The translations under genes and the position numbers were made by a program. The notes beneath the pieces were generated by a model. That model ran no database searches. It was given only the letters and a program-made list of their open reading frames with translations, and was not told the DNA's origin. DNA of 64,000 bases from Escherichia phage FL18. How positions within the stretch are numbered: position 1 is the stretch's first letter; each line of letters opens with the position of its first letter. The DNA lies in the sequence record PP400780. One strand, written 5' to 3'. This document shows positions 12,453-64,000 of the stretch, in pieces.

Positions 12453-13187
12453 ATGGAGCTAATCTTTTTAAGTGGCATCAAACGTAGTGGTAAAGACACT
12501 ACTGCTGATTACATCAATTCAAACTTTAAATCCGTAAAATACCAATTGGCATATCCGATTAAAGACGCTCTAGCAATAGCCTGGGGACGTAAACATGCTG
12601 AAGATCCTGATGTATTCACAGAGTTGAAATACGAATACTTTGAAGGCATTGGATATGACCGTGAAACACCATTAAATCTCAATAAGTTGGATGTTATTGA
12701 ATTATTGGAAGAAGCGCTAATTTATTTACAAAGTCAATATTTACCAATTAATAATGTTAAAGTATTATCATCATTAGAAGGTGGGTATTCATATCTAGAT
12801 ATTAAACCATATGAAGCCCTGCGTGAAGCTATAAATAATATCAACGACACATGGTCAATCCGCCGTCTTATGCAAGCCCTCGGTACGGATGTTGTCGTTA
12901 ATTTATTTGACCGTATGTATTGGGTTAAACTTTTTGCATTAAACTATATGGATTATATTGGAAGTGATTTCGATTACTATGTTGTAACCGATACACGCCA
13001 AGTCCATGAAATGGAAACCGCTAGAGCGATGGGTGCTACAGTTATTCATGTGGTTCGCTCTGGTACGGAATCCACTGATAAACATATTACAGAAGCTGGG
13101 TTGCCTATTGAAGAAGGCGATTTAGTTATTACAAACGACGGCTCTTTAGAAGAGCTTTATTCTAAAATTGAAACAATCTTAAGGTAA
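12453..13187 (+). CDS. 1: deoxynucleoside monophosphate kinase gp1
   Basis: 244 aa; N-terminal P-loop-like LSGIKRSGKDT; synteny. Confidence 0.75.
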   Translation: MELIFLSGIKRSGKDTTADYINSNFKSVKYQLAYPIKDALAIAWGRKHAEDPDVFTELKYEYFEGIGYDRETPLNLNKLDVIELLEEALIYLQSQYLPINNVKVLSSLEGGYSYLDIKPYEALREAINNINDTWSIRRLMQALGTDVVVNLFDRMYWVKLFALNYMDYIGSDFDYYVVTDTRQVHEMETARAMGATVIHVVRSGTESTDKHITEAGLPIEEGDLVITNDGSLEELYSKIETILR

Positions 13188-40241: not shown

Positions 40242-40715
40242 ATGTTATTATCAGGCGCAAAATATAAAGAAGAAAAACAAAAATTTTATGATGCACAGAA
40301 TGGTAAGTGTCCTATTTGCCACCGTGAATTAGACCCTGATGTTCAAGGTAACCATCTTGACCACGACCACGAATTAAACGGGCCAAAAGCCGGTAGAGTT
40401 CGTGGATTACTCTGTAATCTGTGCAACGCAGCAGAAGGTCAAATGAAGCATAAGTTCAACCGTTCCGGTCTTAAAGGACGTGGTGTCGACTACCTCGAAT
40501 GGCTTGAAGCTCTTCTTGTTTATTTGAAACAAGATTATTCTGATAATAATATCCATCCTAATTTTGTTCCAGACAAAACTAAAGAGTTCTCAAGACTAGG
40601 TAAAGAGGAAATGATGGCTGAGATGCTTCAAAGAGGATTTGAATATAATGAATCTGACACCAAAACACAGTTAATAACTTCATTTAAGAAGCAGCTTAGA
40701 AAGAGTTTAAAATGA
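40242..40715 (+). CDS. 49: endonuclease VII (Holliday junction resolvase)
   Basis: 157 aa; zinc motif CPIC...C..C and HLDHDHE; strong similarity to recalled T4 gp49. Confidence 0.85.
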   Translation: MLLSGAKYKEEKQKFYDAQNGKCPICHRELDPDVQGNHLDHDHELNGPKAGRVRGLLCNLCNAAEGQMKHKFNRSGLKGRGVDYLEWLEALLVYLKQDYSDNNIHPNFVPDKTKEFSRLGKEEMMAEMLQRGFEYNESDTKTQLITSFKKQLRKSLK

Positions 40716-41380
40716 ATGTAGTATATAAACTATCATTTATTAGTAGAATTAATGCTAAAACCCCGCCATATTATTATATTGGAAGTAAAACCAATTGCAC
40801 TTTTGACGGAACGAATATTATTGATAAAAATGGTAAATTTTATTATTCGTCTTCGTCATCTTCCGAATTTCAAAAAGCTTTGTTGAAAGAAACACCGAAA
40901 GTTGAAATATTATATTTTCAATTAGTCGGAGATGAACAAATAACTAGCATTGAAGCTGAATTTCAAAAGAATATAGAAAAAGATATATGGAATAAAGAGT
41001 ATTTTAATTTAGCATATGCTAATGGTCAATTTACAACGTACGGTGTTTCTCCTTCTAAAGAAACTAGAGAAAAGCAATCAATAACCATGATTAAAAGAAA
41101 TCGTAATAAAGGTAAAAATCATGGATTTTATGGAAAGCATCATACTAATTTAGCCAGAAAGAAAATATCAGAAGCTTCTAAAAAATACTGGAAAGAAAAT
41201 CCACATCATGGATTTTCGCACACAAAGGAAGCTAAAATTAAAATTGGAATTTCATCTTCTATCAGGCATAAAGGAAGTGGAAATCCGATGTACGGCGTAA
41301 AACCTTGGAAAACTCCTAGCGTTGTTCCATGGAATTTAGGTAAAATGAAAGAAATGGTAAAACGAGTAAAACATGCATAG
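40712..41380 (+). CDS. GIY-YIG family endonuclease (short form)
   Basis: VYKL...YYYIGSK plus NUMOD3-like GKNHGFYGKHHT motifs; 222 aa. Confidence 0.55.
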   Translation: MNVVYKLSFISRINAKTPPYYYIGSKTNCTFDGTNIIDKNGKFYYSSSSSSEFQKALLKETPKVEILYFQLVGDEQITSIEAEFQKNIEKDIWNKEYFNLAYANGQFTTYGVSPSKETREKQSITMIKRNRNKGKNHGFYGKHHTNLARKKISEASKKYWKENPHHGFSHTKEAKIKIGISSSIRHKGSGNPMYGVKPWKTPSVVPWNLGKMKEMVKRVKHA

Positions 41381-42203
41381 GTATTATATAATTTATAAAA
41401 TAACAAATATAATTAATTCAAAGGAATATATCGGTGCGCATAGCACCGATAACATAAATGATGGTTATATGGGATCAGGAACATTGATTCGTGCCGCTTT
41501 ATTAAAATATGGTAGAAAAAATTTTAATAAAGAAATTTTACATGTTTTTGATAATGAAAAACAAATGTATGATAAAGAAGCTGAACTCGTAACCGAAGAG
41601 TATTGTCTAAAAGAAAATACATATAATATTAAACCTGGTGGAAAAGGTGGAACTGCCTATGAACAGACACTTGAACATCGCCGCAAAAATAGTTTAGCAA
41701 ATAAAGGTAAAAAGAGAACAGAAGAAACTAAAATAGCTATTTCACGTGCTTTAAAGAAATATAAACGTACGCCAGAGCATCAAGCAAATTTAAATAAAGC
41801 CGTAAGCATAGCTATGAAGCGAAAAGATGTTAGAAGTAAATTAGCTGGAGAGCGGTCTGAGAAAGATAAATTACCTATATCAAACGGTGTTAAAAAATAT
41901 TACAATTCTTTGAGTGAAGAAGAACGCGAACTTCATCGCAAGCGAATTATTGAAGGTAAAAAGAATTCTCCCATGTCATTGGAATCTAGACAAAAGCTTT
42001 CAAAAGCTTTAAAAGGACTTCAAGTTGGTTCAAAAAATCCAATGTATGGAAAAATTTCTCCAACTAGCAAAACCGTTTCAGTTGACGGTATTAAATATGA
42101 TTCAATTAAAAAGTGCTCAAATGCCATAAAAGTTTCTAGACATCTTATACTAAAACGCTGTAATTCTACTGATGAAGCTTGGAAAAATTGGATATTATTA
42201 TGA
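41373..42203 (+). CDS. GIY-YIG homing endonuclease
   Basis: YIIYKITN...EYIGAH...GSG, three NUMOD3-like repeats, C-terminal HTH; 276 aa. Confidence 0.65.
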   Translation: MHRYYIIYKITNIINSKEYIGAHSTDNINDGYMGSGTLIRAALLKYGRKNFNKEILHVFDNEKQMYDKEAELVTEEYCLKENTYNIKPGGKGGTAYEQTLEHRRKNSLANKGKKRTEETKIAISRALKKYKRTPEHQANLNKAVSIAMKRKDVRSKLAGERSEKDKLPISNGVKKYYNSLSEEERELHRKRIIEGKKNSPMSLESRQKLSKALKGLQVGSKNPMYGKISPTSKTVSVDGIKYDSIKKCSNAIKVSRHLILKRCNSTDEAWKNWILL

Positions 42204-42670
42204 ATTATGACAGAATATACCCGTGTTGCTTTGTGAATGGCCCTGGATGCAGGGTCGTTCTTTTCGTTACAGGTTGTTTGCATAAATGCGAAGGGTGTTA
42301 TAATAAATCAACATGGAATGCTAGAAATGGTGTTCCATTCACTGGTGAAACACTAGAACAATTAATTGAATGTTTGAATAATGATTATATAGAAGGATTG
42401 ACTATAACCGGAGGTGACCCTCTTTATCCTGATAACAGAGACGTGATTCACTCTGTGGTTCAAACTATTAAAAATCTTTATCCCAATAAAAGCATTTGGT
42501 TGTGGACAGGATATAAGTTTGAAGATATTAAACAACTAGAAATGCTTAAATATGTTGATGTTATTATTGATGGGAAGTATGAGAAAAATCTTCCGACTAA
42601 AAAGCTGTGGCGAGGATCAGATAATCAGCGACTTTGGTCAAATACCGATGTGGTGTGGAAACATGATTAA
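42203..42670 (+). CDS. nrdG: anaerobic ribonucleotide reductase activating protein (radical SAM)
   Basis: CLHKCEGCYN cluster; 155 aa. Confidence 0.75.
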   Translation, partial: NYDRIYPCCFVNGPGCRVVLFVTGCLHKCEGCYNKSTWNARNGVPFTGETLEQLIECLNNDYIEGLTITGGDPLYPDNRDVIHSVVQTIKNLYPNKSIWLWTGYKFEDIKQLEMLKYVDVIIDGKYEKNLPTKKLWRGSDNQRLWSNTDVVWKHD

Positions 42671-54556: not shown

Positions 54557-57268
54557 ATGAAAGAATTTTACTTAACGGTTGAACAGATTGGTGATTCAAT
54601 TTTTGAACGTTACATCGATTCTAATGGCCGTGAACGTACTCGTGAAGTAGAATATAAACCATCACTGTTTGCTCATTGTCCAGAAAGTCAGGCTACGAAA
54701 TATTTCGATATCTACGGTAAGCCGTGTACTCGTAAGTTGTTCGCTAATATGCGTGATGCCTCCCAATGGATTAAACGCATGGAAGATATCGGACTTGAAG
54801 CACTTGGCATGGACGATTTCAAATTGGCGTATTTGTCTGACACTTATAACTATGAAATCAAATACGACCATACAAAAATTCGTGTGGCTAACTTCGACAT
54901 CGAAGTAACATCTCCGGATGGGTTCCCTGAGCCATCACAAGCAAAACATCCGATTGATGCTATCACCCATTATGACTCAATTGACGACAGGTTCTACGTA
55001 TTTGATCTATTGAATTCTCCATATGGTAATGTAGAAGAATGGTCTATTGAAATCGCTGCTAAGCTTCAAGAACAAGGCGGTGATGAAGTTCCATCTGAAA
55101 TTATCGATAAAATCATTTATATGCCGTTCGATAACGAAAAAGAATTGTTGATGGAATATCTCAACTTCTGGCAACAGAAAACTCCTGTCATTTTGACTGG
55201 ATGGAACGTTGAGTCATTCGATATTCCATATGTGTATAACCGAATCAAGAATATTTTTGGCGAATCTACTGCGAAACGTTTATCACCGCATCGTAAAACT
55301 CGTGTTAAAGTTATCGAAAACATGTATGGTTCTCGTGAAATCATTACATTGTTCGGTATCTCTGTTCTTGATTACATTGACCTTTACAAAAAATTCTCTT
55401 TTACCAATCAACCGTCGTATTCTCTGGATTACATTTCAGAATTTGAATTGAACGTTGGTAAACTGAAATATGATGGCCCTATTTCTAAGCTTCGTGAAAG
55501 CAATCACCAACGATATATAAGCTATAACATCATCGACGTGTATCGTGTATTGCAAATTGATGCTAAGCGTCAGTTCATCAACTTGAGTTTGGACATGGGT
55601 TATTATGCTAAGATACAGATTCAATCTGTGTTTAGCCCAATTAAAACATGGGATGCTATTATTTTTAATAGCCTTAAAGAGCAGAACAAGGTGATTCCAC
55701 AAGGTCGTTCTCACCCGGTTCAACCTTATCCCGGCGCTTTTGTTAAGGAACCTATTCCAAATCGATACAAATATGTAATGAGTTTCGACCTTACATCTCT
55801 GTATCCAAGTATTATTCGCCAAGTGAATATTAGCCCGGAAACAATAGCAGGAACGTTTAAAGTAGCTCCATTGCATGATTATATTAACGCAATCGCTGAA
55901 CGTCCTTCAGATGTGTACAGTTGCTCTCCTAACGGCATGATGTATTATAAAGACCGTGATGGTGTAGTTCCAACTGAAATCACTAAGGTCTTTAATCAAC
56001 GTAAAGAACATAAAGGTTACATGCTTGCAGCTCAACGTAATGGTGAAATAATTAAAGAGGCATTGCATAATCCTAATCTTTCTGTTGACGAACCATTAGA
56101 TGTTGATTATCGTTTCGACTTCAGCGATGAGATTAAAGAAAAGATTAAAAAGTTGTCTGCTAAATCTCTTAATGAAATGTTGTTTAGAGCTCAACGTACT
56201 GAAGTTGCAGGTATGACTGCACAAATTAACCGTAAATTGCTTATCAACTCGCTTTATGGTGCACTTGGAAACGTTTGGTTCCGTTATTACGATTTGCGTA
56301 ATGCAACTGCAATCACAACATTCGGGCAAATGGCTTTACAGTGGATTGAACGTAAAGTTAATGAATATCTGAATGAAGTTTGTGGTACAGAAGGTGAAGC
56401 TTTCGTTCTATATGGTGATACAGACTCCATTTATGTATCTGCAGATAAAATTATTGATAAGGTTGGTGAATCTAAATTCCGTGATACCAACCATTGGGTA
56501 GACTTCTTAGATAAGTTTGCACGTGAACGTATGGAACCTGCTATTGATAGAGGTTTCCGTGAAATGTGCGAATACATGAACAATAAACAACACTTAATGT
56601 TCATGGACCGAGAAGCTATCGCTGGGCCTCCGCTTGGTTCTAAAGGTATTGGCGGATTTTGGACTGGTAAGAAACGTTATGCATTAAACGTGTGGGATAT
56701 GGAAGGTACTCGTTACGCTGAGCCTAAACTCAAAATCATGGGTCTAGAAACTCAGAAATCTTCGACCCCTAAAGCAGTACAGAAAGCTCTTAAAGAATGT
56801 ATTCGTCGTATGCTTCAAGAAGGTGAAGAATCATTACAAGAATATTTTAAAGAGTTTGAAAAAGAATTCCGTCAATTGAATTATATTAGCATCGCGTCGG
56901 TATCTTCTGCGAATAACATTGCTAAATATGACGTAGGTGGATTCCCTGGTCCTAAATGCCCGTTCCATATTCGTGGAATTCTGACATATAACCGAGCTAT
57001 CAAAGGTAATATCGATGCACCACAAGTTGTAGAAGGTGAAAAAGTATATGTTCTGCCTTTACGTGAAGGAAACCCATTCGGTGATAAATGTATCGCATGG
57101 CCTTCTGGTACTGAAATCACAGATTTAATTAAAGACGATGTACTTCATTGGATGGACTACACTGTTCTCCTTGAGAAGACATTTATTAAACCACTTGAAG
57201 GATTCACATCAGCAGCGAAACTCGATTATGAGAAGAAAGCATCTCTGTTCGATATGTTCGATTTTTGA
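54557..57268 (+). CDS. 43: DNA polymerase gp43 (family B)
   Basis: 903 aa; exonuclease FDIE, polymerase YGDTDS and KxxxNSxYG motifs; length and N-terminus as recalled for RB69 gp43. Confidence 0.95.
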   Translation: MKEFYLTVEQIGDSIFERYIDSNGRERTREVEYKPSLFAHCPESQATKYFDIYGKPCTRKLFANMRDASQWIKRMEDIGLEALGMDDFKLAYLSDTYNYEIKYDHTKIRVANFDIEVTSPDGFPEPSQAKHPIDAITHYDSIDDRFYVFDLLNSPYGNVEEWSIEIAAKLQEQGGDEVPSEIIDKIIYMPFDNEKELLMEYLNFWQQKTPVILTGWNVESFDIPYVYNRIKNIFGESTAKRLSPHRKTRVKVIENMYGSREIITLFGISVLDYIDLYKKFSFTNQPSYSLDYISEFELNVGKLKYDGPISKLRESNHQRYISYNIIDVYRVLQIDAKRQFINLSLDMGYYAKIQIQSVFSPIKTWDAIIFNSLKEQNKVIPQGRSHPVQPYPGAFVKEPIPNRYKYVMSFDLTSLYPSIIRQVNISPETIAGTFKVAPLHDYINAIAERPSDVYSCSPNGMMYYKDRDGVVPTEITKVFNQRKEHKGYMLAAQRNGEIIKEALHNPNLSVDEPLDVDYRFDFSDEIKEKIKKLSAKSLNEMLFRAQRTEVAGMTAQINRKLLINSLYGALGNVWFRYYDLRNATAITTFGQMALQWIERKVNEYLNEVCGTEGEAFVLYGDTDSIYVSADKIIDKVGESKFRDTNHWVDFLDKFARERMEPAIDRGFREMCEYMNNKQHLMFMDREAIAGPPLGSKGIGGFWTGKKRYALNVWDMEGTRYAEPKLKIMGLETQKSSTPKAVQKALKECIRRMLQEGEESLQEYFKEFEKEFRQLNYISIASVSSANNIAKYDVGGFPGPKCPFHIRGILTYNRAIKGNIDAPQVVEGEKVYVLPLREGNPFGDKCIAWPSGTEITDLIKDDVLHWMDYTVLLEKTFIKPLEGFTSAAKLDYEKKASLFDMFDF

Positions 57269-57308
57269 TATAATGTCATGGACGGTAAACTAATTAAATG
57301 AGAGAAAT

Positions 57309-57944
57309 ATGAAAACTACTCCTATTACTATCGCTATTGACGCAATCATAAAACAAGCTTCTTCTTTGGCCGCTATGGCCAAAGTAATTAGTCAAAACCC
57401 TGCTCGTTATAATGCTATTCTAGAAACTCTTCGACGCCCTGGACTTAGTAATTATGAAAGCCGGGTAATTATTACAGGTGTTGGTAAGAATGCTAATATC
57501 GCAACTAAAGCTTCCGAGACATTTGCTTCACTAGGTATTCCTAGCATGTATTTGAACACTGGGCATTATTCTCACGGTGATGCAGGATTCATTGCGCCTA
57601 ATGATGTGTTGATTCATATTAGTCGTTCTGGTAAGACTGAAGAAATGATAGGTGTTGCTAAACATCTTCGTATGATTCGTCCTCAGGTTAAACAGATTCT
57701 GTTACATTGTAACCCAGACATTCCACAAGAATACGAAGCTCTTTTTGATTATACGTTCTGTACTGGCATCGCGGTAGAGGTTGATGAGAATTCTCTGGCT
57801 CCGACTATGTCCACTACATTGTTGTTAGCGCTTATCGATACGTTTGCTATCAACCTTTCGTCTGAACGTGGATTTACCTCTAATGATTTCCTTAAGTTCC
57901 ATCCAGGCGGTGCACTAGGTGCCATGTTACGAGGCGAACAATGA
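57309..57944 (+). CDS. SIS-domain sugar-phosphate isomerase (arabinose-5-phosphate isomerase KdsD/GutQ-like, no CBS domains)
   Basis: ITGVGKN, HGDAGF, SRSGKTEE, LAPTMSTT, FHPGGALG motifs; 211 aa. Confidence 0.7.
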   Translation: MKTTPITIAIDAIIKQASSLAAMAKVISQNPARYNAILETLRRPGLSNYESRVIITGVGKNANIATKASETFASLGIPSMYLNTGHYSHGDAGFIAPNDVLIHISRSGKTEEMIGVAKHLRMIRPQVKQILLHCNPDIPQEYEALFDYTFCTGIAVEVDENSLAPTMSTTLLLALIDTFAINLSSERGFTSNDFLKFHPGGALGAMLRGEQ

Positions 57945-58084
57945 AAGCAATAACAATAGGACTTTTACTATTGATGCTTGTCATGACTATCTACTGGAGC
58001 TTAACGGCTCCGGTAATGATTCCAACACTTGTAATTGGATGGATTATGATTGGACTACAAGCAAAGTATGAATGCTTTAACTAG
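57941..58084 (+). CDS. small membrane protein (47 aa)
   Basis: ATGA overlap; hydrophobic. Confidence 0.3.
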   Translation: MKAITIGLLLLMLVMTIYWSLTAPVMIPTLVIGWIMIGLQAKYECFN

Positions 58085-58125
58085 AATAGTGTACAATACT
58101 CCTACTTACCAATGAGGACTTTAAC

Positions 58126-59811
58126 ATGAAAAAAGCTGTTATTCTTGGTGCTGGACTGGCAACTCGTTTGTATCCAATAACGCATCATATTCCTAAGGTG
58201 CTTGTTAACTATAAACAAGATACTATTCTGAGCAATTTGTATACAATTTATTCTGACCTTGGCGCAGATGAAATTATTGTAGTAGTTCATTCAAAATTTG
58301 CTGAAACTGTTCGAGCTTATTGTGAACAAGAAGGGTTCAATGTGACTATTCGTACAGTTGATGAAGCGTATGGTTCTGCTTATGCTCTTGCTAAATTACA
58401 CAAAGATTTAGACGGCCATAATGTAATTGTTAACTGGTGTGATATTATTCCTGATTTTGGTTCATGGTCTTGGAATGTTAACGCAATCTATGTTAAGGGT
58501 GACGAATGTCGATATAATTTCGACGGTGAAAATATCACTAACGTAGGTTCAACAGGTGGTAATGTTGTAGGAATTTATCAGTTCAAAGACTGGGAATTCT
58601 ATATGGGTTCTACTGATGAGGAAATTCATGAATACTGCAAAGGACGTGATTTCGTAGAATTCCTTTACGGCAGCGCATTCAATAAATCAGAGCTTATGAA
58701 TCTAATTGATTTAGGTGATATGCCTAAACTTGAAAAAGCTCATGAAGTTCGTGAACTTAATCGTAGTTTTAATGCAGTTGAAATTGGTGAAGAAACTGTA
58801 ACTAAATTCGCATTAACCGAACAGGGTCGAGCTCTTCAGAAAGATGAGATTTCGTGGTATCTTAAAGTGAAATCAGATTCAGTTCCTCAGTTAGTTTCTG
58901 TTAATGAAAATAACTTTGAAATGGAACGCATTAAAGGTAAGCCTGCATTTGAATATATTAAATCCAAATCAAGTCTTGCTCGTCCACAAATTGTTGATGC
59001 AATTTTAGATGCACTGAAATTCAGCACAGACACTTATTTTGTAAGTCCTGAAACTGTTCGTCGTGATTTCACTAAAGAATTCTATACGAAAGTTATTGAT
59101 CGTTGTGAAAGCATTCAACCATTGATTGATTCATTTGGTAAAATCACACATGTGAACTACACTAAGATTGGACGTCTGAAGCCAATGCTGAAACAAGCTT
59201 TAGAACACCTCATTCGTTATCATAACCGTTCTCAGGGACAGTACTCTGTTATTCACGGTGACCCGAACTTCAGTAATACTATGATTACTGATAATGGCGA
59301 AGTCAAGTTTATCGACCCTCGTGGATATTTTGGTGAAACCAAGATTTACGGGCCAAAATTGTACGATGAAGCTAAAGTGCTTTATGCTGTTTCAGGTTAT
59401 GATGAATTCAATGCTAATCCGACCTGGGGGCAGTTTACTATTGATGAAACAACTTGTAATGTGACTATTAACATCAATCCATTAGTTTACAAATATAGAA
59501 AGATGAGTTCGTTTAACGAGTATCATCATTTGGCAGTGGCAATTATCTGGATTGCATTAGGCGGTTATTTCAAGAATAATCCACTTAAAGCGGTAGCCGC
59601 ATATTATAAAGGTATGGAACTTCTGACTAAGCAATTACGTAACATGGGCCGTGTACTTCAGGACGGCTCTATTAGTTATGACGTAGCAGAACCTGTAACG
59701 GCTACTCTGATTACAAAAAATCCTGGTAAATGGGTACTAACTGATAAAGAAACTGGTGTTTCCTATCGTCCAATCGGTGGCGATATCACTCATCAATGGG
59801 AACGAATCTAA
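58126..59811 (+). CDS. bifunctional sugar-1-phosphate nucleotidyltransferase / sugar kinase
   Basis: N-terminal GAGLATRLYPITHHIPKVLV (NTP-transferase signature); C-terminal HGDPNFSN and FIDPRG (APH/choline-kinase-like catalytic motifs); 561 aa. Confidence 0.65.
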   Translation: MKKAVILGAGLATRLYPITHHIPKVLVNYKQDTILSNLYTIYSDLGADEIIVVVHSKFAETVRAYCEQEGFNVTIRTVDEAYGSAYALAKLHKDLDGHNVIVNWCDIIPDFGSWSWNVNAIYVKGDECRYNFDGENITNVGSTGGNVVGIYQFKDWEFYMGSTDEEIHEYCKGRDFVEFLYGSAFNKSELMNLIDLGDMPKLEKAHEVRELNRSFNAVEIGEETVTKFALTEQGRALQKDEISWYLKVKSDSVPQLVSVNENNFEMERIKGKPAFEYIKSKSSLARPQIVDAILDALKFSTDTYFVSPETVRRDFTKEFYTKVIDRCESIQPLIDSFGKITHVNYTKIGRLKPMLKQALEHLIRYHNRSQGQYSVIHGDPNFSNTMITDNGEVKFIDPRGYFGETKIYGPKLYDEAKVLYAVSGYDEFNANPTWGQFTIDETTCNVTININPLVYKYRKMSSFNEYHHLAVAIIWIALGGYFKNNPLKAVAAYYKGMELLTKQLRNMGRVLQDGSISYDVAEPVTATLITKNPGKWVLTDKETGVSYRPIGGDITHQWERI

Positions 59812-60197
59812 TGCACCGTGTAGAAAACATGCTTAATCTTTGTTTTGATGTCGATGATTGTATAACAGAGTGGAATAACAATCGTGATTACGTGAACTTC
59901 AAACCTGACGTCGAAATGGTGTCTGCCATTAATGCCCTGTATGATGCAGGGCATACCATAACGCTTTACACTGCTCGCGGTATGAAGTCAGTAGGTCCTG
60001 GACGTATAGCAATTGACATTCTCCCAAGTCTGATTCAGAACTTGGAAAACATTGGTTTGAAGTACCATAATTTGCTAACACATAAACCAGTATATGATTG
60101 GATTATCGACGACAAAGCTATGCGTCCTGACGAATTCAAAGCTCTTATGAATAAAGGCGAATTCGAAACATTTAAATCGTATAAACCGAATCTATAA
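59811..60197 (+). CDS. HAD-superfamily phosphatase-like protein
   Basis: motif I FDVDDCIT; 128 aa. Confidence 0.5.
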   Translation: MHRVENMLNLCFDVDDCITEWNNNRDYVNFKPDVEMVSAINALYDAGHTITLYTARGMKSVGPGRIAIDILPSLIQNLENIGLKYHNLLTHKPVYDWIIDDKAMRPDEFKALMNKGEFETFKSYKPNL

Positions 60198-60253
60198 TAA
60201 TTTAAGTAAGACCTGCAAAAACCATCGCGTCAATTAACGTGAGATGCAAAAAA

Positions 60254-61414
60254 ATGAATACTTTTAAAATTGGAACGAATTTTGATTTAGCTCTTCTTGA
60301 TAAAATCGTAGAGCTCAATAAAACTTATCCTAATAGCTTGATAAACGAAGTATACGGCTCTACAAGAGAAATGGCTTTTGTAGCAGCCAGACCTGATTTT
60401 AGGCTTCCTGACGTTGACAAAAAGATGTTAGAAGATTACGTTAAACGTTGTAACGAATTAGGTATTTGCTTTAACTATACACTCAACACGATAAATCCTG
60501 GTTCAAAAAGAGAACTAGTTGAGTGGAAGAAGAAAGCTATTCAGGATTATGTTCAGTATCTTTGGTCAATAGGTGTATGGCGTATTACTATCGCTAACCC
60601 TGTTGTTATGGAAATTGTTCGTGAAGTCAATAAAGACATTGAGATTGAAGTTTCAACAATTCTACATGTCGATGCTGTAACTCAAATCAAATACTTGCAT
60701 GACCAGTATAATATCAAAAAGGTCTGCTGTGGAATTCATAAGAACCGTTCAGTTTCTTTCCTGAAGCGTGCAGCAGAGTTTTGCAATAAGAACAATATAA
60801 TATTTGAAGTTCTTGTAAATGAGTTCTGTTCTAATGCTGGTAAAGGGTATACAACACATTGTAGCTATCGTGACTCTTGCTATATTTTCCATAGTACTGA
60901 TGTTACAGCTGATGATGCTAAATCCTTAAACGGATATCCTATGCAGCACTGTATTAAAGCTCGTGATACAGACCCATTTAACTGGTTGAGAACTCGTTTT
61001 GTTCGTCCTCAAGATTTGAAACTTTATAATGATATTGGTATCACTCAATTCAAAGTTTCAGGACGTACAGGTAGCACAGACTACATTTTGAAAGTTCTTG
61101 AAGCATACGCTTCTGAAAAGTTTGAAGGTAATTTGTTAGAACTGTGGAAGCCTTTAGAGACTATTTTCACTCTTGAAAACGAAACTGAGTTTTCACATAC
61201 AGTAAATATTGAAACCTCTTTGTTAGATGGCTTTTTAGAAAAAAGGTGGTTCAGACATCCAGATTTCGATTGTGCTAATGAAATCTGCGGGACGACGTGT
61301 ACATATTGTGAAAGATATTATAAACGTCAATTATCTAAAAACGGGTTAGCAGAAAACTCTATATCTATTATTGATATAACTAACTCTGATGACGCTTTGA
61401 GGTACCCGGAATGA
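60254..61414 (+). CDS. cysteine-rich hypothetical protein
   Basis: 386 aa; C-terminal CANEICGTTCTYCERYY cluster; function not recognised. Confidence 0.5.
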   Translation: MNTFKIGTNFDLALLDKIVELNKTYPNSLINEVYGSTREMAFVAARPDFRLPDVDKKMLEDYVKRCNELGICFNYTLNTINPGSKRELVEWKKKAIQDYVQYLWSIGVWRITIANPVVMEIVREVNKDIEIEVSTILHVDAVTQIKYLHDQYNIKKVCCGIHKNRSVSFLKRAAEFCNKNNIIFEVLVNEFCSNAGKGYTTHCSYRDSCYIFHSTDVTADDAKSLNGYPMQHCIKARDTDPFNWLRTRFVRPQDLKLYNDIGITQFKVSGRTGSTDYILKVLEAYASEKFEGNLLELWKPLETIFTLENETEFSHTVNIETSLLDGFLEKRWFRHPDFDCANEICGTTCTYCERYYKRQLSKNGLAENSISIIDITNSDDALRYPE

Positions 61415-61650
61415 TTTCTAGAAAAACTTTTAATCACCAACTTAATGAAGAGATTTTGACTACGAAACTGAACACTAACGAACAAATTCTTAAAAAGGCC
61501 CTTATGGGCCTGTTTGAAACCAAAGCGGCTAAAGTGATTAAAGGACCTGTTCAATTAGAATATTACGCTGATACATTTCTTCATAGTGTTCTTGGAAGTA
61601 TCGATGCTGAAGCTTTACGTTATATCAACATTGCCAAGAAATTCAAATAA
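61411..61650 (+). CDS. hypothetical protein
   Basis: 79 aa. Confidence 0.45.
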   Translation: MISRKTFNHQLNEEILTTKLNTNEQILKKALMGLFETKAAKVIKGPVQLEYYADTFLHSVLGSIDAEALRYINIAKKFK

Positions 61651-61673
61651 GCTTTACGAATTGAGTATATAAT
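61651..61673 (+). promoter_or_regulatory. candidate middle promoter (GCTTTA + 11 nt + TATAAT)
   Basis: seen in sequence. Confidence 0.35.
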
Positions 61674-61692
61674 AAATTGTATTGAGGTAAAC

Positions 61693-62409
61693 ATGGGGAA
61701 ACATAACACAATGAAATATATCAAAGCCGCAGATTTTCAAACCGCATTTAAAGCAGTCAATCGTGAAATTTTAGAAAACCCGGAATTCGTAACTGATTCT
61801 CGTATTGGACGTTGTAATGAAATTGGGTCTATGACAGTAGTTGTTGACACTCCATCATCATTCAAAATGACTGACCCACGTATTAACCGCATCTCTTATG
61901 AATATGCCGAAGACTTCTGGAAGTTTATGATTTCTGGTGGTACCAACGCAGAAGAAGCGTTTAAGGCATATCCTAATGTCGCTAAATTTATTTCTAAACC
62001 AAAATCAGATGTTTTGCCGGCGAACTTCAATACTTTCTATGGTCCTCGCATTGCGGCCCAATTACCAGCTCTTCTAAAAGAACTTAAAGAGAAGCCTAAC
62101 TCTCGAAGAGTTGTGTTCCAAATTCTAGAAAGTTCTGATCAGGCTTTGCTTGATTCGGATGAAACGCTTGAATATCCATGTACTGACTCAGTGACTTATT
62201 ATATTCGTGATGGTAAGCTTTATACCCACTGTCATATGCGTTCTCAGAACTGTGCTGTTGTTATGCAGTTGGATTTTTATCTCCAAGGAAAATTACTTCA
62301 TTATATCGCTAACGAATGCGGTGTAGAAGTTGGTGATTATACTCATACCATGGTAAGTGCCCATGTGTTTGAACGTGATTTTGATTATGTTAAAGGATTC
62401 CTTGACTAA
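61693..62409 (+). CDS. 42: thymidylate-synthase-family pyrimidine hydroxymethylase (gene 42-like dCMP hydroxymethylase, divergent)
   Basis: NSRRVVF, YPCTDSV (catalytic Cys), HMRSQN...QLDFY; synteny before uvsX; 238 aa. Confidence 0.55.
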   Translation: MGKHNTMKYIKAADFQTAFKAVNREILENPEFVTDSRIGRCNEIGSMTVVVDTPSSFKMTDPRINRISYEYAEDFWKFMISGGTNAEEAFKAYPNVAKFISKPKSDVLPANFNTFYGPRIAAQLPALLKELKEKPNSRRVVFQILESSDQALLDSDETLEYPCTDSVTYYIRDGKLYTHCHMRSQNCAVVMQLDFYLQGKLLHYIANECGVEVGDYTHTMVSAHVFERDFDYVKGFLD

Positions 62410-63308
62410 TGGCTATTTTCCGCGTACCAATCTTGAGTATGCGGTCTTATGAAACTGGACAGTATGCTATCCTTAAGGATGGCAACTTCCAACTTCATTT
62501 GCACCGTGCTAATCCGGGTGATGTGATTACATATCCACGTAATGCATCTGATATTAAAGAATGCGAACGTCTTTTCCCAGAATTTAAGTTTGTTCCATTA
62601 TGGTATAAAGATAACGCTTATAACACTCGTAAATATTTCTGGTCTGAAAATGAATTTGTGGTTGATTCATTAATTGCTTATTATGATTGCGATTTTCTAA
62701 TCACAGATATAACTGGATATGACGGCGCTTTTGATGTAGAATTCAATTTCAATATCACTGCAGACCCTAATAAACCACGTTTTTATATTGACGAATTCTT
62801 AAAAACCGACATGTTGTCGGTTAATCGTTCAATCCAAACAACTGTGTTGAATGAACGTCAAAAAGAAGTGCTGGTTAACGCAGGTGCAGATGGTAATAAG
62901 ATTATCGTAACGCAGAAAGTTATACGTCCTTCCATCATGCAGCGTCTTGTAGGTGATTTGGCTCCTATTTATCTAGATGGTATTTTTCATCCATTTCGAA
63001 TTAGTGACCCGTGCTATCGTTTTGAACAAGTGGTTGAATGTGCAATTCAATTAGGTCAACCGCTTTATATAACCGATCCAAATAATAGCTTTGACAGAAA
63101 TAAGTATCCTGAAGAAGCGTTGATTCGAATTTTTAAACCAACTAAAACTGAGTACTATCAAATTCTTAAAGGACGTCCGAAGATTCAATATTTCGAAAAT
63201 CCTGAAGAGGTATTTCATCCAGGTCTTGGTGAGTTCATCTACTTTAATGCTTTAATTTCTTCACCGTATAATATACCTAAATATGAAGATGTCGTAATCG
63301 AGGAATAA
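62409..63308 (+). CDS. hypothetical protein at beta-glucosyltransferase position
   Basis: 299 aa; no resemblance to recalled T4 beta-gt. Confidence 0.45.
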   Translation: MAIFRVPILSMRSYETGQYAILKDGNFQLHLHRANPGDVITYPRNASDIKECERLFPEFKFVPLWYKDNAYNTRKYFWSENEFVVDSLIAYYDCDFLITDITGYDGAFDVEFNFNITADPNKPRFYIDEFLKTDMLSVNRSIQTTVLNERQKEVLVNAGADGNKIIVTQKVIRPSIMQRLVGDLAPIYLDGIFHPFRISDPCYRFEQVVECAIQLGQPLYITDPNNSFDRNKYPEEALIRIFKPTKTEYYQILKGRPKIQYFENPEEVFHPGLGEFIYFNALISSPYNIPKYEDVVIEE

Positions 63309-63309
63309 A

Positions 63310-63858
63310 ATGGCTAAAATTATTTTAGTAGATGGCCCGGATAATGCTGGTAAAACAACTTTCATTAATGACATAATGGAAATTAGTGAAAGATATGTAA
63401 AAATTGATTTCCCTAAACGAACAGTTGATGGACGTTTCGATGTTAAGTCTCGAAATGAAGTTGGCTGTTTTGAAACGATGTTGAATTATTTAGACCCTAC
63501 TAAGATTTATCTGTTAGACCGTGGATATATTAGTAACTGGGTTTACGGACGTATTCGACAAGATGCGGACTCGGTTCTTGACGTTTATGAACAGGATTAT
63601 ATTCGTCTTTGCCAAAACCATGATGTGTTCACAATTATTTTAACACGTAACGAAATGACTGAAAGTTTTGAAGACGACCTTATTACTTTGTCTTCATTCG
63701 GTTTTAATACAGTCATTTCACATTTTGAAGAGTTTGCAATTCATAACAAAATCCAAACGTATCAATTACTTAATCATGATGGTGCTAACAAAGTTATAGG
63801 ATTTAATGCAAGCGAACGTAATGGTTTGATTACAGAAATCATCAAATGGGCTCGTTAA
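63310..63858 (+). CDS. P-loop nucleotide kinase (thymidylate/dNMP kinase-like)
   Basis: LVDGPDNAGKTT and DRGYIS motifs; 182 aa. Confidence 0.55.
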   Translation: MAKIILVDGPDNAGKTTFINDIMEISERYVKIDFPKRTVDGRFDVKSRNEVGCFETMLNYLDPTKIYLLDRGYISNWVYGRIRQDADSVLDVYEQDYIRLCQNHDVFTIILTRNEMTESFEDDLITLSSFGFNTVISHFEEFAIHNKIQTYQLLNHDGANKVIGFNASERNGLITEIIKWAR

Positions 63859-63956
63859 GAGCCATTTAAAGTTTTAAATGCTGTATAACCCTTAGTATAT
63901 AATCATCTTATCTTTTAAACATGAGTAAAATATAATGATGCCTATGGAAAAAATAC

Positions 63957-64000
63957 AATGTCTGATTTAAAATCTCGTCTGATTAAAGCTTCTACTTCTA
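63957..64000 (+). CDS. uvsX: recombinase UvsX, first codons (continues beyond window)
   Basis: MSDLKSRLIKASTS matches recalled T4 UvsX N-terminus. Confidence 0.7.

Follow-up and report, generated by a model that had tools for sequence, protein, structure and literature searches.

A U32-family protein as a candidate oxygen-independent cytosine hydroxylase in the arabinosyl-5-hydroxycytosine gene block of Escherichia phage FL18

Introduction

The modified base of phages RB69 and DLP3 is mono- or di-arabinosylated 5-hydroxycytosine, in which the sugar is joined by an ether link straight to C5, as determined by nuclear magnetic resonance and mass spectrometry (NMR/MS; Lee et al. NAR 2026, PMC13326640). 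In that work RB69 gp48 converted deoxycytidine monophosphate (dCMP) to 5-hydroxy-dCMP (5hodCMP), bound flavin mononucleotide (FMN) and incorporated 18O from 18O2, and RB69 gp159 phosphorylated 5hodCMP to the diphosphate 5hodCDP. The nucleoside 5hodC (243 Da) was formed in vivo from gp48 and gp159, aerobic expression of both being sufficient (PMC13326640). The sugar route, as summarised there with a citation of He et al. 2026, runs from ribulose-5-P to arabinofuranose-5-P (Araf-5-P), Araf-1,5-P2, Araf-1-P and uridine diphosphate-Araf (UDP-Araf), and the same summary reports UDP-Araf synthesis by homologues from phage HY126 (the AfhE and AfhF functions). Here we describe the corresponding gene block, at 57309-63858, in a 64,000-nucleotide stretch of Escherichia phage FL18 (record PP400780; the whole stretch is hereafter called the window), and we propose that its 386-aa Peptidase-U32-family protein may be a second, O2-independent cytosine hydroxylase.

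Two U32 proteins that hydroxylate RNA are relevant. Escherichia coli RlhA produces 5-hydroxycytidine (ho5C2501) in 23S rRNA and needs Fe-S biogenesis, prephenate, residues E161, C169 and C176, and two C-terminal cysteines (PMC5727448). TrhP forms ho5U34 of tRNA via prephenate and is redundant with the O2-dependent TrhO, which has been read as an aerobic/anaerobic adaptation (PMC6599085). The Discussion of PMC13326640 remarks that the RlhA and TrhP/TrhO pathways do not use homologues of thymidylate synthase (TS)-type enzymes. The RB69 counterpart of the 386-aa protein, gp50, appears in that paper only as a row of Table 1 ('sugar or heterocycle reductase'), and the running text mentions neither gp50 nor U32. 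O2-free synthesis of the base is not addressed there, and the published hydroxylase needs O2.

Results

Gene content and relatives of the block

The window derives from a Mosigvirus (RB69-like T-even phage). The genes assigned to the pathway, together with the U32 gene, are listed below with the evidence for each.

57309..57944, + strand: predicted SIS-domain D-arabinose-5-phosphate isomerase, RB69 gp55 orthologue (SIS, phrog_5670, KpsF/GutQ and KdsD matches)
58126..59811, + strand: bifunctional 561-aa enzyme, RB69 gp52:53 and HY126 AfhE analogue (NTP_transferase, weak kinase matches, phrog_4098)
59811..60197, + strand: HAD-family phosphatase, RB69 gp51 and HY126 AfhF analogue (PDB 9iqw, NCBIfam)
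60254..61414, + strand: Peptidase-U32-family TIM-barrel protein, 386 aa, RB69 gp50 (PF01136, fold match to 5d88)
61693..62409, + strand: TS homologue, 5-hydroxy-dCMP synthase, RB69 gp48 (PDB 9iqc/9ir2, Pfam, signature residues)
62409..63308, + strand: compact GT-B glycosyltransferase, 299 aa, RB69 gp46:47 (GT-B fold match)
63310..63858, + strand: P-loop thymidylate-kinase-like nucleotide kinase, RB69 gp45 (phrog_761)
12453..13187, + strand: gp1 deoxynucleotide monophosphate kinase, RB69 gp159 orthologue (Pfam DNMK, 322.7 bits)

All the open reading frames (ORFs) named in the original prediction, which was made from the sequence without database searches, were found on the + strand at exactly the coordinates it gave or within a few codons of them, and its domain labels (SIS, NTP_transferase/kinase, HAD, TS, P-loop) were reproduced by profile searches. 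The DNA polymerase gene, gp43 (54557-57268), lies immediately 5′ of the block; uvsX is past the end of the window and comes after the block in every relative examined. A 6.8-kb stretch shares 99.5% DNA identity with Escherichia phage JM17 and about 98% with ~150 other records, including RB69 and APCEc01. Because the block is present at at least 80% coverage in 151 phage records and its U32 protein is at least 99% identical in 152, the genes are, judged by this conservation, real and under selection.

Among the described clusters (RB69 gp45-gp55, HY126 Afh and DLP3 gp76-83), it is the RB69 genes that the window carries, in the same order and at 98-100% protein identity. Compared with DLP3, an Acinetobacter phage, the window adds the U32 gene and a 79-aa gene and is without DLP3's two additional glycosyltransferases (GTs). 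The order isomerase, bifunctional enzyme, HAD, TS homologue, GT and kinase is kept in Acinetobacter, Pseudomonas, Shewanella and many enterobacterial Straboviridae phages. The 561-aa and 299-aa genes are intact single ORFs here and are split in the RB69 reference record; the single 561-aa ORF supports the statement in PMC13326640 that the RB69 gp52/gp53 split is a sequencing error. Replacement of deoxycytidine (dC) in virion DNA by mono- and di-arabinosyl-5-hydroxy-dC has been shown for RB69, whose block is ~98% identical to that of the window. The FL18 block is therefore very probably the RB69-type Mosigvirus cluster for arabinosylated 5-hydroxycytosine, replacing all cytosine in virion DNA. 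As such it is already known, being the published RB69-type arabinosyl-5-hydroxycytosine pathway.

Base hydroxylation

The TS homologue is identical at 233 of 238 residues (98%; E 8e-161) to the HY126 hydroxylase solved as PDB 9iqc/9ir2, and matches Pfam Thymidylat_synt at 56.9 bits. It has the signature residues of the described clusters, and the HAD protein is likewise near-identical to an HY126 crystal structure, 9iqw. Aligned to E. coli ThyA, it keeps C146 and carries L143E, D169N and N177D, the signature of 5hodCMP synthases in PMC13326640. The enzyme would hydroxylate dCMP at C5 with flavin and O2. The gp1 kinase, whose gene lies 45 kb from the block yet is part of the pathway, would act with the host NDP kinase to give the triphosphate, and the polymerase would then incorporate 5-hydroxy-dC.

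The original prediction had taken the TS homologue for a hydroxymethylase supplying a hydroxymethylated pyrimidine, that is, for an equivalent of T4 gp42 with arabinose placed on 5-hydroxymethylcytosine (ara-hmC). The same interpretation of the RB69 modification was published in 2018 (PMC6024577), many GenBank records annotate the homologue as dCMP hydroxymethylase, and the protein does belong to the TS family, its dCMP-specifying N177D and its L143E being common to T4-type hydroxymethylases. However, ara-hmC has already been refuted for RB69 by the published NMR/MS, and the ether link to C5 through 5-hydroxycytosine, the production of 5hodC by gp48, the 18O2 incorporation and the flavin cofactor (PMC13326640) all speak against a hydroxymethyl group. 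D169N, a mark of the 5hodCMP synthases, and the 98% identity to the flavin hydroxylase 9iqc point the same way for the window's own protein, and a hydroxymethylase at this position is highly improbable. What survives of the earlier claim is an activated pentose, arabinose, and a modified cytosine to receive it; the base is 5-hydroxylated and not hydroxymethylated.

The T4 glucosyl-hydroxymethylcytosine (glucosyl-hmC) system occupies the same slot, between gene 43 and uvsX, and follows the same logic: a TS-family enzyme acts on dCMP, gp1 phosphorylates the product, and after incorporation by the polymerase a GT-B enzyme adds the sugar. The chemistry differs, T4 using a hydroxymethyl group, methylene-tetrahydrofolate and host UDP-glucose, and the window a hydroxyl group, flavin/O2 (with D169N) and phage-made UDP-arabinofuranose. 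Retention of D169 together with alpha- or beta-glucosyltransferase homologues would mark a T4-type glucosyl-hmC system; the window has N169, and no alpha-gt or beta-gt homologue was found in the block, the 299-aa GT being only a fold-level relative of T4 alpha-GT.

Sugar supply

The UDP-arabinofuranose branch is complete in the window, with a SIS isomerase, a kinase/nucleotidyltransferase and a HAD protein recognised by domain matches and full-length PHROG matches. The isomerase matches Pfam SIS (39.8 bits), phrog_5670 'arabinose 5-phosphate isomerase' (1.6e-116) and, over part of their length, the NCBIfam models KpsF/GutQ (111 bits) and KdsD (106 bits); it consists of the SIS domain alone, without the CBS domains of KdsD. 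It would convert ribulose-5-P to arabinose-5-P, the role proposed in PMC13326640. The 561-aa protein matches Pfam NTP_transferase at residues 3-99 (39.1 bits), phrog_4098 (3e-295) and the cytidylyltransferase PDB 1jyk (2e-5), with weak APH, fructosamine-kinase and EcKL matches at residues 308-409. Its two activities are assigned by analogy to AfhE as that enzyme is described in PMC13326640: the C-terminal kinase domain would phosphorylate Araf-5-P at C1, and the N-terminal nucleotidyltransferase domain would turn Araf-1-P into UDP-arabinofuranose. Between these two steps the HAD phosphatase would take the 5-phosphate off Araf-1,5-bisphosphate. The HAD protein is identical at 127 of 128 residues to PDB 9iqw (E 9e-87) and matches the NCBIfam EcbF-BcbF capsule biosynthesis phosphatase family at 50.7 bits. 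An ATG at 59796 is also open to it, but the 9iqw alignment begins at 59811. The enzyme set for pentose activation had thus been recognised correctly from the start, and its order had not: the predicted isomerase, phosphatase, kinase becomes isomerase, kinase, phosphatase, UDP-sugar, in the route as PMC13326640 summarises it.

The family names of these proteins would also suit genes that act on the host envelope, remodelling KDO, capsule or lipopolysaccharide as auxiliary metabolic or host-takeover genes. The best matches are a KpsF/GutQ/KdsD isomerase, a 'capsule biosynthesis phosphatase' and a GlmU-like transferase, and two of the sugar genes fall in the PHROG class 'moron, auxiliary metabolic gene and host takeover'. 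However, the block holds no KdsA/KdsB-type genes, and its sugar genes form one compact group with those for the dCMP hydroxylase, the GT and the nucleotide kinase between the DNA polymerase gene and uvsX. UDP-Araf synthesis by the HY126 homologues and arabinose on the DNA base, as reported in PMC13326640, likewise argue against an envelope role, which we consider extremely improbable.

Arabinosyl transfer and the thymidylate-kinase-like protein

The original prediction left the transferase between the 299-aa and 386-aa ORFs. The former holds up: it has no sequence-level relatives of known function, its fold is GT-B, with matches including a phage HY126 GT and T4 alpha-GT, and its gene adjoins the synthase gene. 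PMC13326640 proposes gp46:47 as the first (alpha) arabinosyltransferase on 5-hydroxycytosine, and the 299-aa enzyme would put the first arabinose on O5 of the base. The 386-aa ORF is ruled out as a transferase by its fold and its U32 family. The second arabinose would come from another transferase (gp3 in RB69) encoded outside the window, where the dCTPase of the RB69 pathway also lies; the window covers neither.

The P-loop protein matches phrog_761 'thymidylate kinase' (6.8e-45) and otherwise gives weak Pfam and NCBIfam P-loop matches; a PDB sequence search returned no relative. PMC13326640 lists the gp45-type protein as a 'nucleotide kinase' from fold matches. Its gene adjoins the GT gene in Acinetobacter, Pseudomonas, Shewanella and enterobacterial phages. 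The synthase, GT and thymidylate-kinase-like genes (61693-63858) abut or overlap at 62409 and 63308/63310, in an order kept from Acinetobacter to Shewanella phages. Because of this gene coupling and the published failure to arabinosylate 5-hydroxycytosine (5hoC) DNA in vitro, there is a hint that the first arabinose may go onto the mononucleotide and that the enlarged nucleotide may then be the substrate of the kinase.

Published work on near-identical proteins demonstrates dCMP hydroxylation, gp1 kinase activity, the AfhE/AfhF-type sugar steps and the structure of the base; we infer the isomerase step and the roles of the 299-aa GT and the thymidylate-kinase-like protein. Some points weigh against the assignment of the block as a whole. 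The individual GTs were inactive on 5hoC-DNA, so that the first arabinosyl transfer was not reconstituted and the choice between DNA and mononucleotide was left undecided (PMC13326640). The 47-aa, 79-aa, U32 and thymidylate-kinase-like ORFs have at best tentative roles, and two enzymes of the RB69 pathway, the dCTPase and the second GT, are encoded beyond the window. The assignment for FL18 is also one of analogy, carried over from the work on RB69, DLP3 and HY126.

The U32 protein

The 386-aa protein scores 42.2 bits against Peptidase_U32 (PF01136), for which the cutoff is 22.4. Its AlphaFold2 model (predicted local distance difference test score 92.5) finds the U32 structure 5d88 as best PDB fold match (E 1.9e-7). 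Sequence and profile searches of the PDB (phmmer/profile) gave no U32 match, returning nothing or a spurious BIM1. A GTG at 60239 is also open as a start, and the PHROG and RB69 annotations favour 60254.

A profile of the phage U32 clade aligned to E. coli RlhA in hhalign with a probability of 84.5% (E 7e-6, 205 columns, ~22% identity), the corresponding probabilities for TrhP and UbiU being 14% and 5%. The alignment pairs E190, C203 and C209 of the phage protein with the essential E161, C169 and C176 of RlhA. Across 121 sequences of the clade, down to 48% identity, E190 and the cysteines at 158, 192, 203, 209, 233, 340, 345, 349 and 352 are invariant or nearly so. Altogether the protein has ten such cysteines, with a C-terminal cluster CX4CX3CX2C and a second spacing CX10CX5C...C, and those that would ligate an Fe-S cluster are assigned presumptively.

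The phage protein thus resembles the O2-independent hydroxylases RlhA, TrhP and UbiU-UbiV, the last of which serve ubiquinone, in having a U32 domain above the Pfam cutoff and a TIM-barrel matching 5d88. With RlhA it further shares the aligned E/C/C residues, and its C-terminal cysteine cluster parallels the essential C-terminal cysteines of that enzyme. RlhA hydroxylates cytosine at C5, precisely the reaction that the pathway needs, and its dependence on prephenate may be mirrored, indirectly, by a linkage of the phage gene to chorismate mutase (CM), described below. However, the phage proteins are highly divergent from these U32 enzymes: they lack DUF3656, have other cysteine spacing and presumably act on a deoxynucleotide or DNA instead of RNA or a quinone.

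The U32 proteins of Straboviridae carry an extra C-terminal tail of ~25 residues (61330-61414 in the window) that ends in an acidic motif, SDDxxRYPE; the metagenomic clade is without it. The tail might serve to dock another protein.

Linkage to chorismate mutase

A CM_2 (AroQ) chorismate mutase (33-47 bits, cutoff 27) was found beside the U32 gene in 9/9 non-Mosigvirus Straboviridae loci examined, from phages of Enterobacter, Edwardsiella, Serratia, Klebsiella, Proteus, Yersinia, Pectobacterium, E. coli (phage EcS1) and Shewanella. In these loci it lies directly 3′ of U32 or one small gene further on, usually with overlapping stop and start codons, and in Shewanella phage Thanatos-2 U32 and CM have moved as a pair to another part of the cluster. 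A single-query tblastn for the phage CM returned 51 phage records, all of Enterobacterales or Shewanella phages and all with the gene beside a U32 gene and the synthase. No chorismate mutase was detected in any frame of the window with a hidden Markov model (HMM) of the nine phage CMs. The putative prephenate link is one of gene linkage, with CM in the nine Straboviridae loci and a fusion of 3-deoxy-D-arabino-heptulosonate 7-phosphate (DAHP) synthase to CM, or a standalone CM, in six distant loci; the window itself is without CM.

The 79-97-aa Straboviridae CMs (e.g. L001:6158-6397) are ~12 residues shorter between helices 2 and 3 than the CM domains of the fusions at loci L047, L050 and L051, and keep the N-terminal Arg/Arg/Lys and C-terminal Ser...Gln positions. 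Prephenate has another reported use in phages, feeding the CmoA/Cx-SAM route in Synechococcus phage S-B43 (PMC12783734). Neither the Pfam matches of the block nor the leading families in the census of neighbouring proteins included a CmoA-like one, though no search aimed at CmoA was made.

Distribution of the two hydroxylase types

The TS-type hydroxylase was found in 373 phage records, including 57 of Acinetobacter and ~20 of Rhizobium/Agrobacterium phages. The U32 protein was found in 221, all at at least 80% identity and all phages of facultative anaerobes. A closer inspection of Acinetobacter, Pseudomonas and E. coli Dhakavirus loci revealed the sugar genes, synthase, GT and kinase with neither U32 nor CM.

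A distant U32 clade, at 37-58% identity, occurs on large non-Straboviridae viral contigs, for which 6 kb on either side of each U32 gene was inspected. Homologues of the window's GT, bifunctional enzyme and/or SIS isomerase accompany U32 in 24/32 of these loci, and a TS-type hydroxylase lies within 6 kb of U32 in none of the 32. The only TS found (L038) keeps L143, D169 and N177, and is an ordinary ThyA. Some of the distant U32 genes stand among genes for dCMP deaminase, thymidylate kinase, deoxynucleoside kinase (dNK), NT5C, dUTPase and a polymerase fused to uracil-DNA glycosylase. In five distant loci a DAHP-synthase/chorismate-mutase fusion (CM_2 39-86 bits) is one or two genes from U32, and in a census that took in 121 neighbouring proteins DAHP_synth_1 and CM_2 were the commonest families. 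Fusions of DAHP_synth_1 to CM on IMG/VR contigs of large uncultured phages are found at L047:4411-5433, L050:4321-5376, L051:4332-5387 and L061:7079-8197. We have not seen a fused DAHP synthase-CM described as a shikimate-pathway auxiliary gene of phages.

When 100,044 bacterial and archaeal species were scanned (one genome each), the U32 clade turned up at seven loci. Each of these comes from an obligate anaerobe or an anoxic habitat: Erysipelotrichales, Lachnospiraceae, two Romboutsia metagenome-assembled genomes (MAGs), a Bacillota MAG, Phocaeicola faecalis and a subsurface BRC1 MAG. At one of the seven, U32 is accompanied by a P-loop kinase, a transferase like the 299-aa GT and an unfused CM (68 bits); another has U32 with a GT and the bifunctional enzyme. 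A different neighbourhood was seen at L080:2996-7089 (P. faecalis) and L014/L076:5135-9098, where GP88, an S-adenosylmethionine (SAM) methyltransferase and a 265-267-aa protein of unknown function precede U32. In L080 the methyltransferase is fused to guanylate kinase, and in L014/L076 U32 is followed by NT5C, a nicotinamide mononucleotide transporter, dNK, a radical-SAM gene, a second U32 paralogue and a nucleoside deoxyribosyltransferase. This context might mark a base modification in which the base is hydroxylated and then O-methylated.

Taken together, the loci fall into three configurations: the TS-type enzyme only, in phages of strict aerobes and certain enterobacterial ones; the two enzymes together, in phages of facultative anaerobes, the window among them; and U32 only near the sugar and GT genes, often with CM, in anaerobe-associated phages.

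Small ORFs and homing endonucleases

Besides the ORFs named in the original prediction, the block contains two small ones.

57941..58084, + strand: hydrophobic small ORF, 47 aa (phrog_3610, 6.8e-27), overlapping the isomerase stop codon
61411..61650, + strand: 79-aa protein, RB69 gp49 (phrog_8601), its start overlapping the U32 stop codon

ORFs of ~47 aa between the isomerase and bifunctional genes are also found in LC53 (annotated with transmembrane segments), TG1, PEi26, PM2 and EcS1. The 47-aa ORF occupies the place of imm (superinfection immunity) in T4 and some relatives, and is kept in at least five other genera. The 79-aa protein is homologous to small ORFs between the U32 and CM genes in Yersinia phage TG1 and Pectobacterium phage PM2. 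In Entb_45 and LC53 the gene at the corresponding position carries a CM annotation. As a CM_2/AroQ chorismate mutase, however, the 79-aa ORF was rejected, with no Pfam match at E<=10 and none to the HMM of nine phage CMs; it belongs to a different small-protein family.

Homing endonuclease genes have been gained or lost within the block. JM17 has ~700 bp extra relative to 57200-64000 of the window, annotated as a GIY-YIG endonuclease, and a SegC-like gene lies between the HAD and U32 genes in LC53 (L002:3854-4492) and PEi26 (L010:3352-3990).

Discussion

The U32 protein of the block is, with moderate probability, an Fe-S enzyme that uses prephenate and no O2 to hydroxylate C5 of cytosine, either in a deoxynucleotide or in DNA. 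We infer this from homology, conserved residues, gene linkage and distribution. The three configurations would be explained most simply by U32 as a second, prephenate-consuming hydroxylase yielding an identical or related acceptor base. Together with its small partner protein, it would form an O2-independent route to 5-hydroxycytosine in phages of facultative anaerobes when the flavin/O2-dependent TS homologue cannot work, and in phages associated with obligate anaerobes it would apparently be the sole hydroxylase near the sugar and transferase genes. In most genera the translationally coupled phage chorismate mutase would supply the co-substrate. If each modified base cost one prephenate, the presence of CM and even DAHP synthase genes in phages would be understandable. 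A full-text literature search, which did not cover He et al. (Nat Chem Biol 2026) and Mahler et al. (Cell Host Microbe 2025), both cited in PMC13326640, found no prior link of phage U32 or chorismate mutase genes to this modification.

Such an arrangement has parallels in the pairs TrhO (O2)/TrhP (prephenate) (PMC6599085), UbiI/H/F-UbiU/V and NrdAB-NrdDG, in each of which an aerobic and an anaerobic enzyme serve one reaction; the TS homologue and the putatively O2-independent U32 protein are encoded side by side in phages of facultative anaerobes. The redundancy is here read from gene distribution alone, and Dhakavirus has the O2-dependent enzyme only.

Alternatively, the U32 protein may not be a base hydroxylase at all, being instead a 'sugar or heterocycle reductase', a protease (the 'collagenase' annotation) or an RlhA/TrhP-like rRNA or tRNA hydroxylase that tunes translation. 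GenBank annotations of the gene as a peptidase point that way, and an RNA substrate is conceivable since T4-like phages carry tRNAs. To our knowledge every functionally characterised U32 protein is an O2-independent hydroxylase, and we know of no member with demonstrated reductase activity. Protease activity in the family is discussed as mechanistically unsupported in PMC5727448. The surroundings of the gene also argue against these functions: it is embedded in DNA-precursor and glycosylation clusters (dCMP deaminase, Tmk, dNK, NT5C, dUTPase, GT, SIS, NTP-transferase) of both Straboviridae and unrelated large phages, accompanies chorismate mutase in two different architectures, and stands with sugar and GT genes in examined loci that have no TS-type hydroxylase nearby. 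We regard a function other than base hydroxylation as less likely but quite possible.

Several observations nevertheless weigh against U32 as a base hydroxylase. Similarity to RlhA is remote, and of the canonical U32-motif cysteines only two align. The lineage of the window is without the chorismate mutase, E. coli Dhakaviruses have the pathway without U32, and aerobic expression of gp48 and gp159 is enough for 5hodC (PMC13326640). The comparison of distant loci extends over 6 kb on each side of U32. RB69 carries gene 49, nrdD (605 aa) and nrdG in that order, and so has both anaerobic ribonucleotide reductase genes; RB69 NrdD gave no tblastn match in the window. There, the nrdD slot (40712-42203) contains two GIY-YIG/NUMOD3 Seg-like homing-endonuclease ORFs (222 and 276 aa), and nrdG is left as an orphan at 42179-42670. 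As a sign of anaerobic replication by the window's own phage, nrdD/nrdG was accordingly rejected, nrdD being lost; the argument holds for the genus and not for this genome.

If the proposal is correct, the protein would be the first of the U32 hydroxylases to have DNA precursors as substrate, and would answer how phages of gut bacteria that replace all their cytosine make the base without oxygen. The aerobic/anaerobic pairing of TrhO/TrhP and UbiIHF/UbiUV would be extended to viral DNA chemistry, and the occurrence of chorismate mutase and DAHP synthase genes in phages would be explained. Moreover, the U32 clade beside a kinase and a GT or methyltransferase would be a marker for hydroxylated-base modifications in phages of anaerobes, which are relevant to phage therapy and to the restriction- and CRISPR-resistance of phage DNA.

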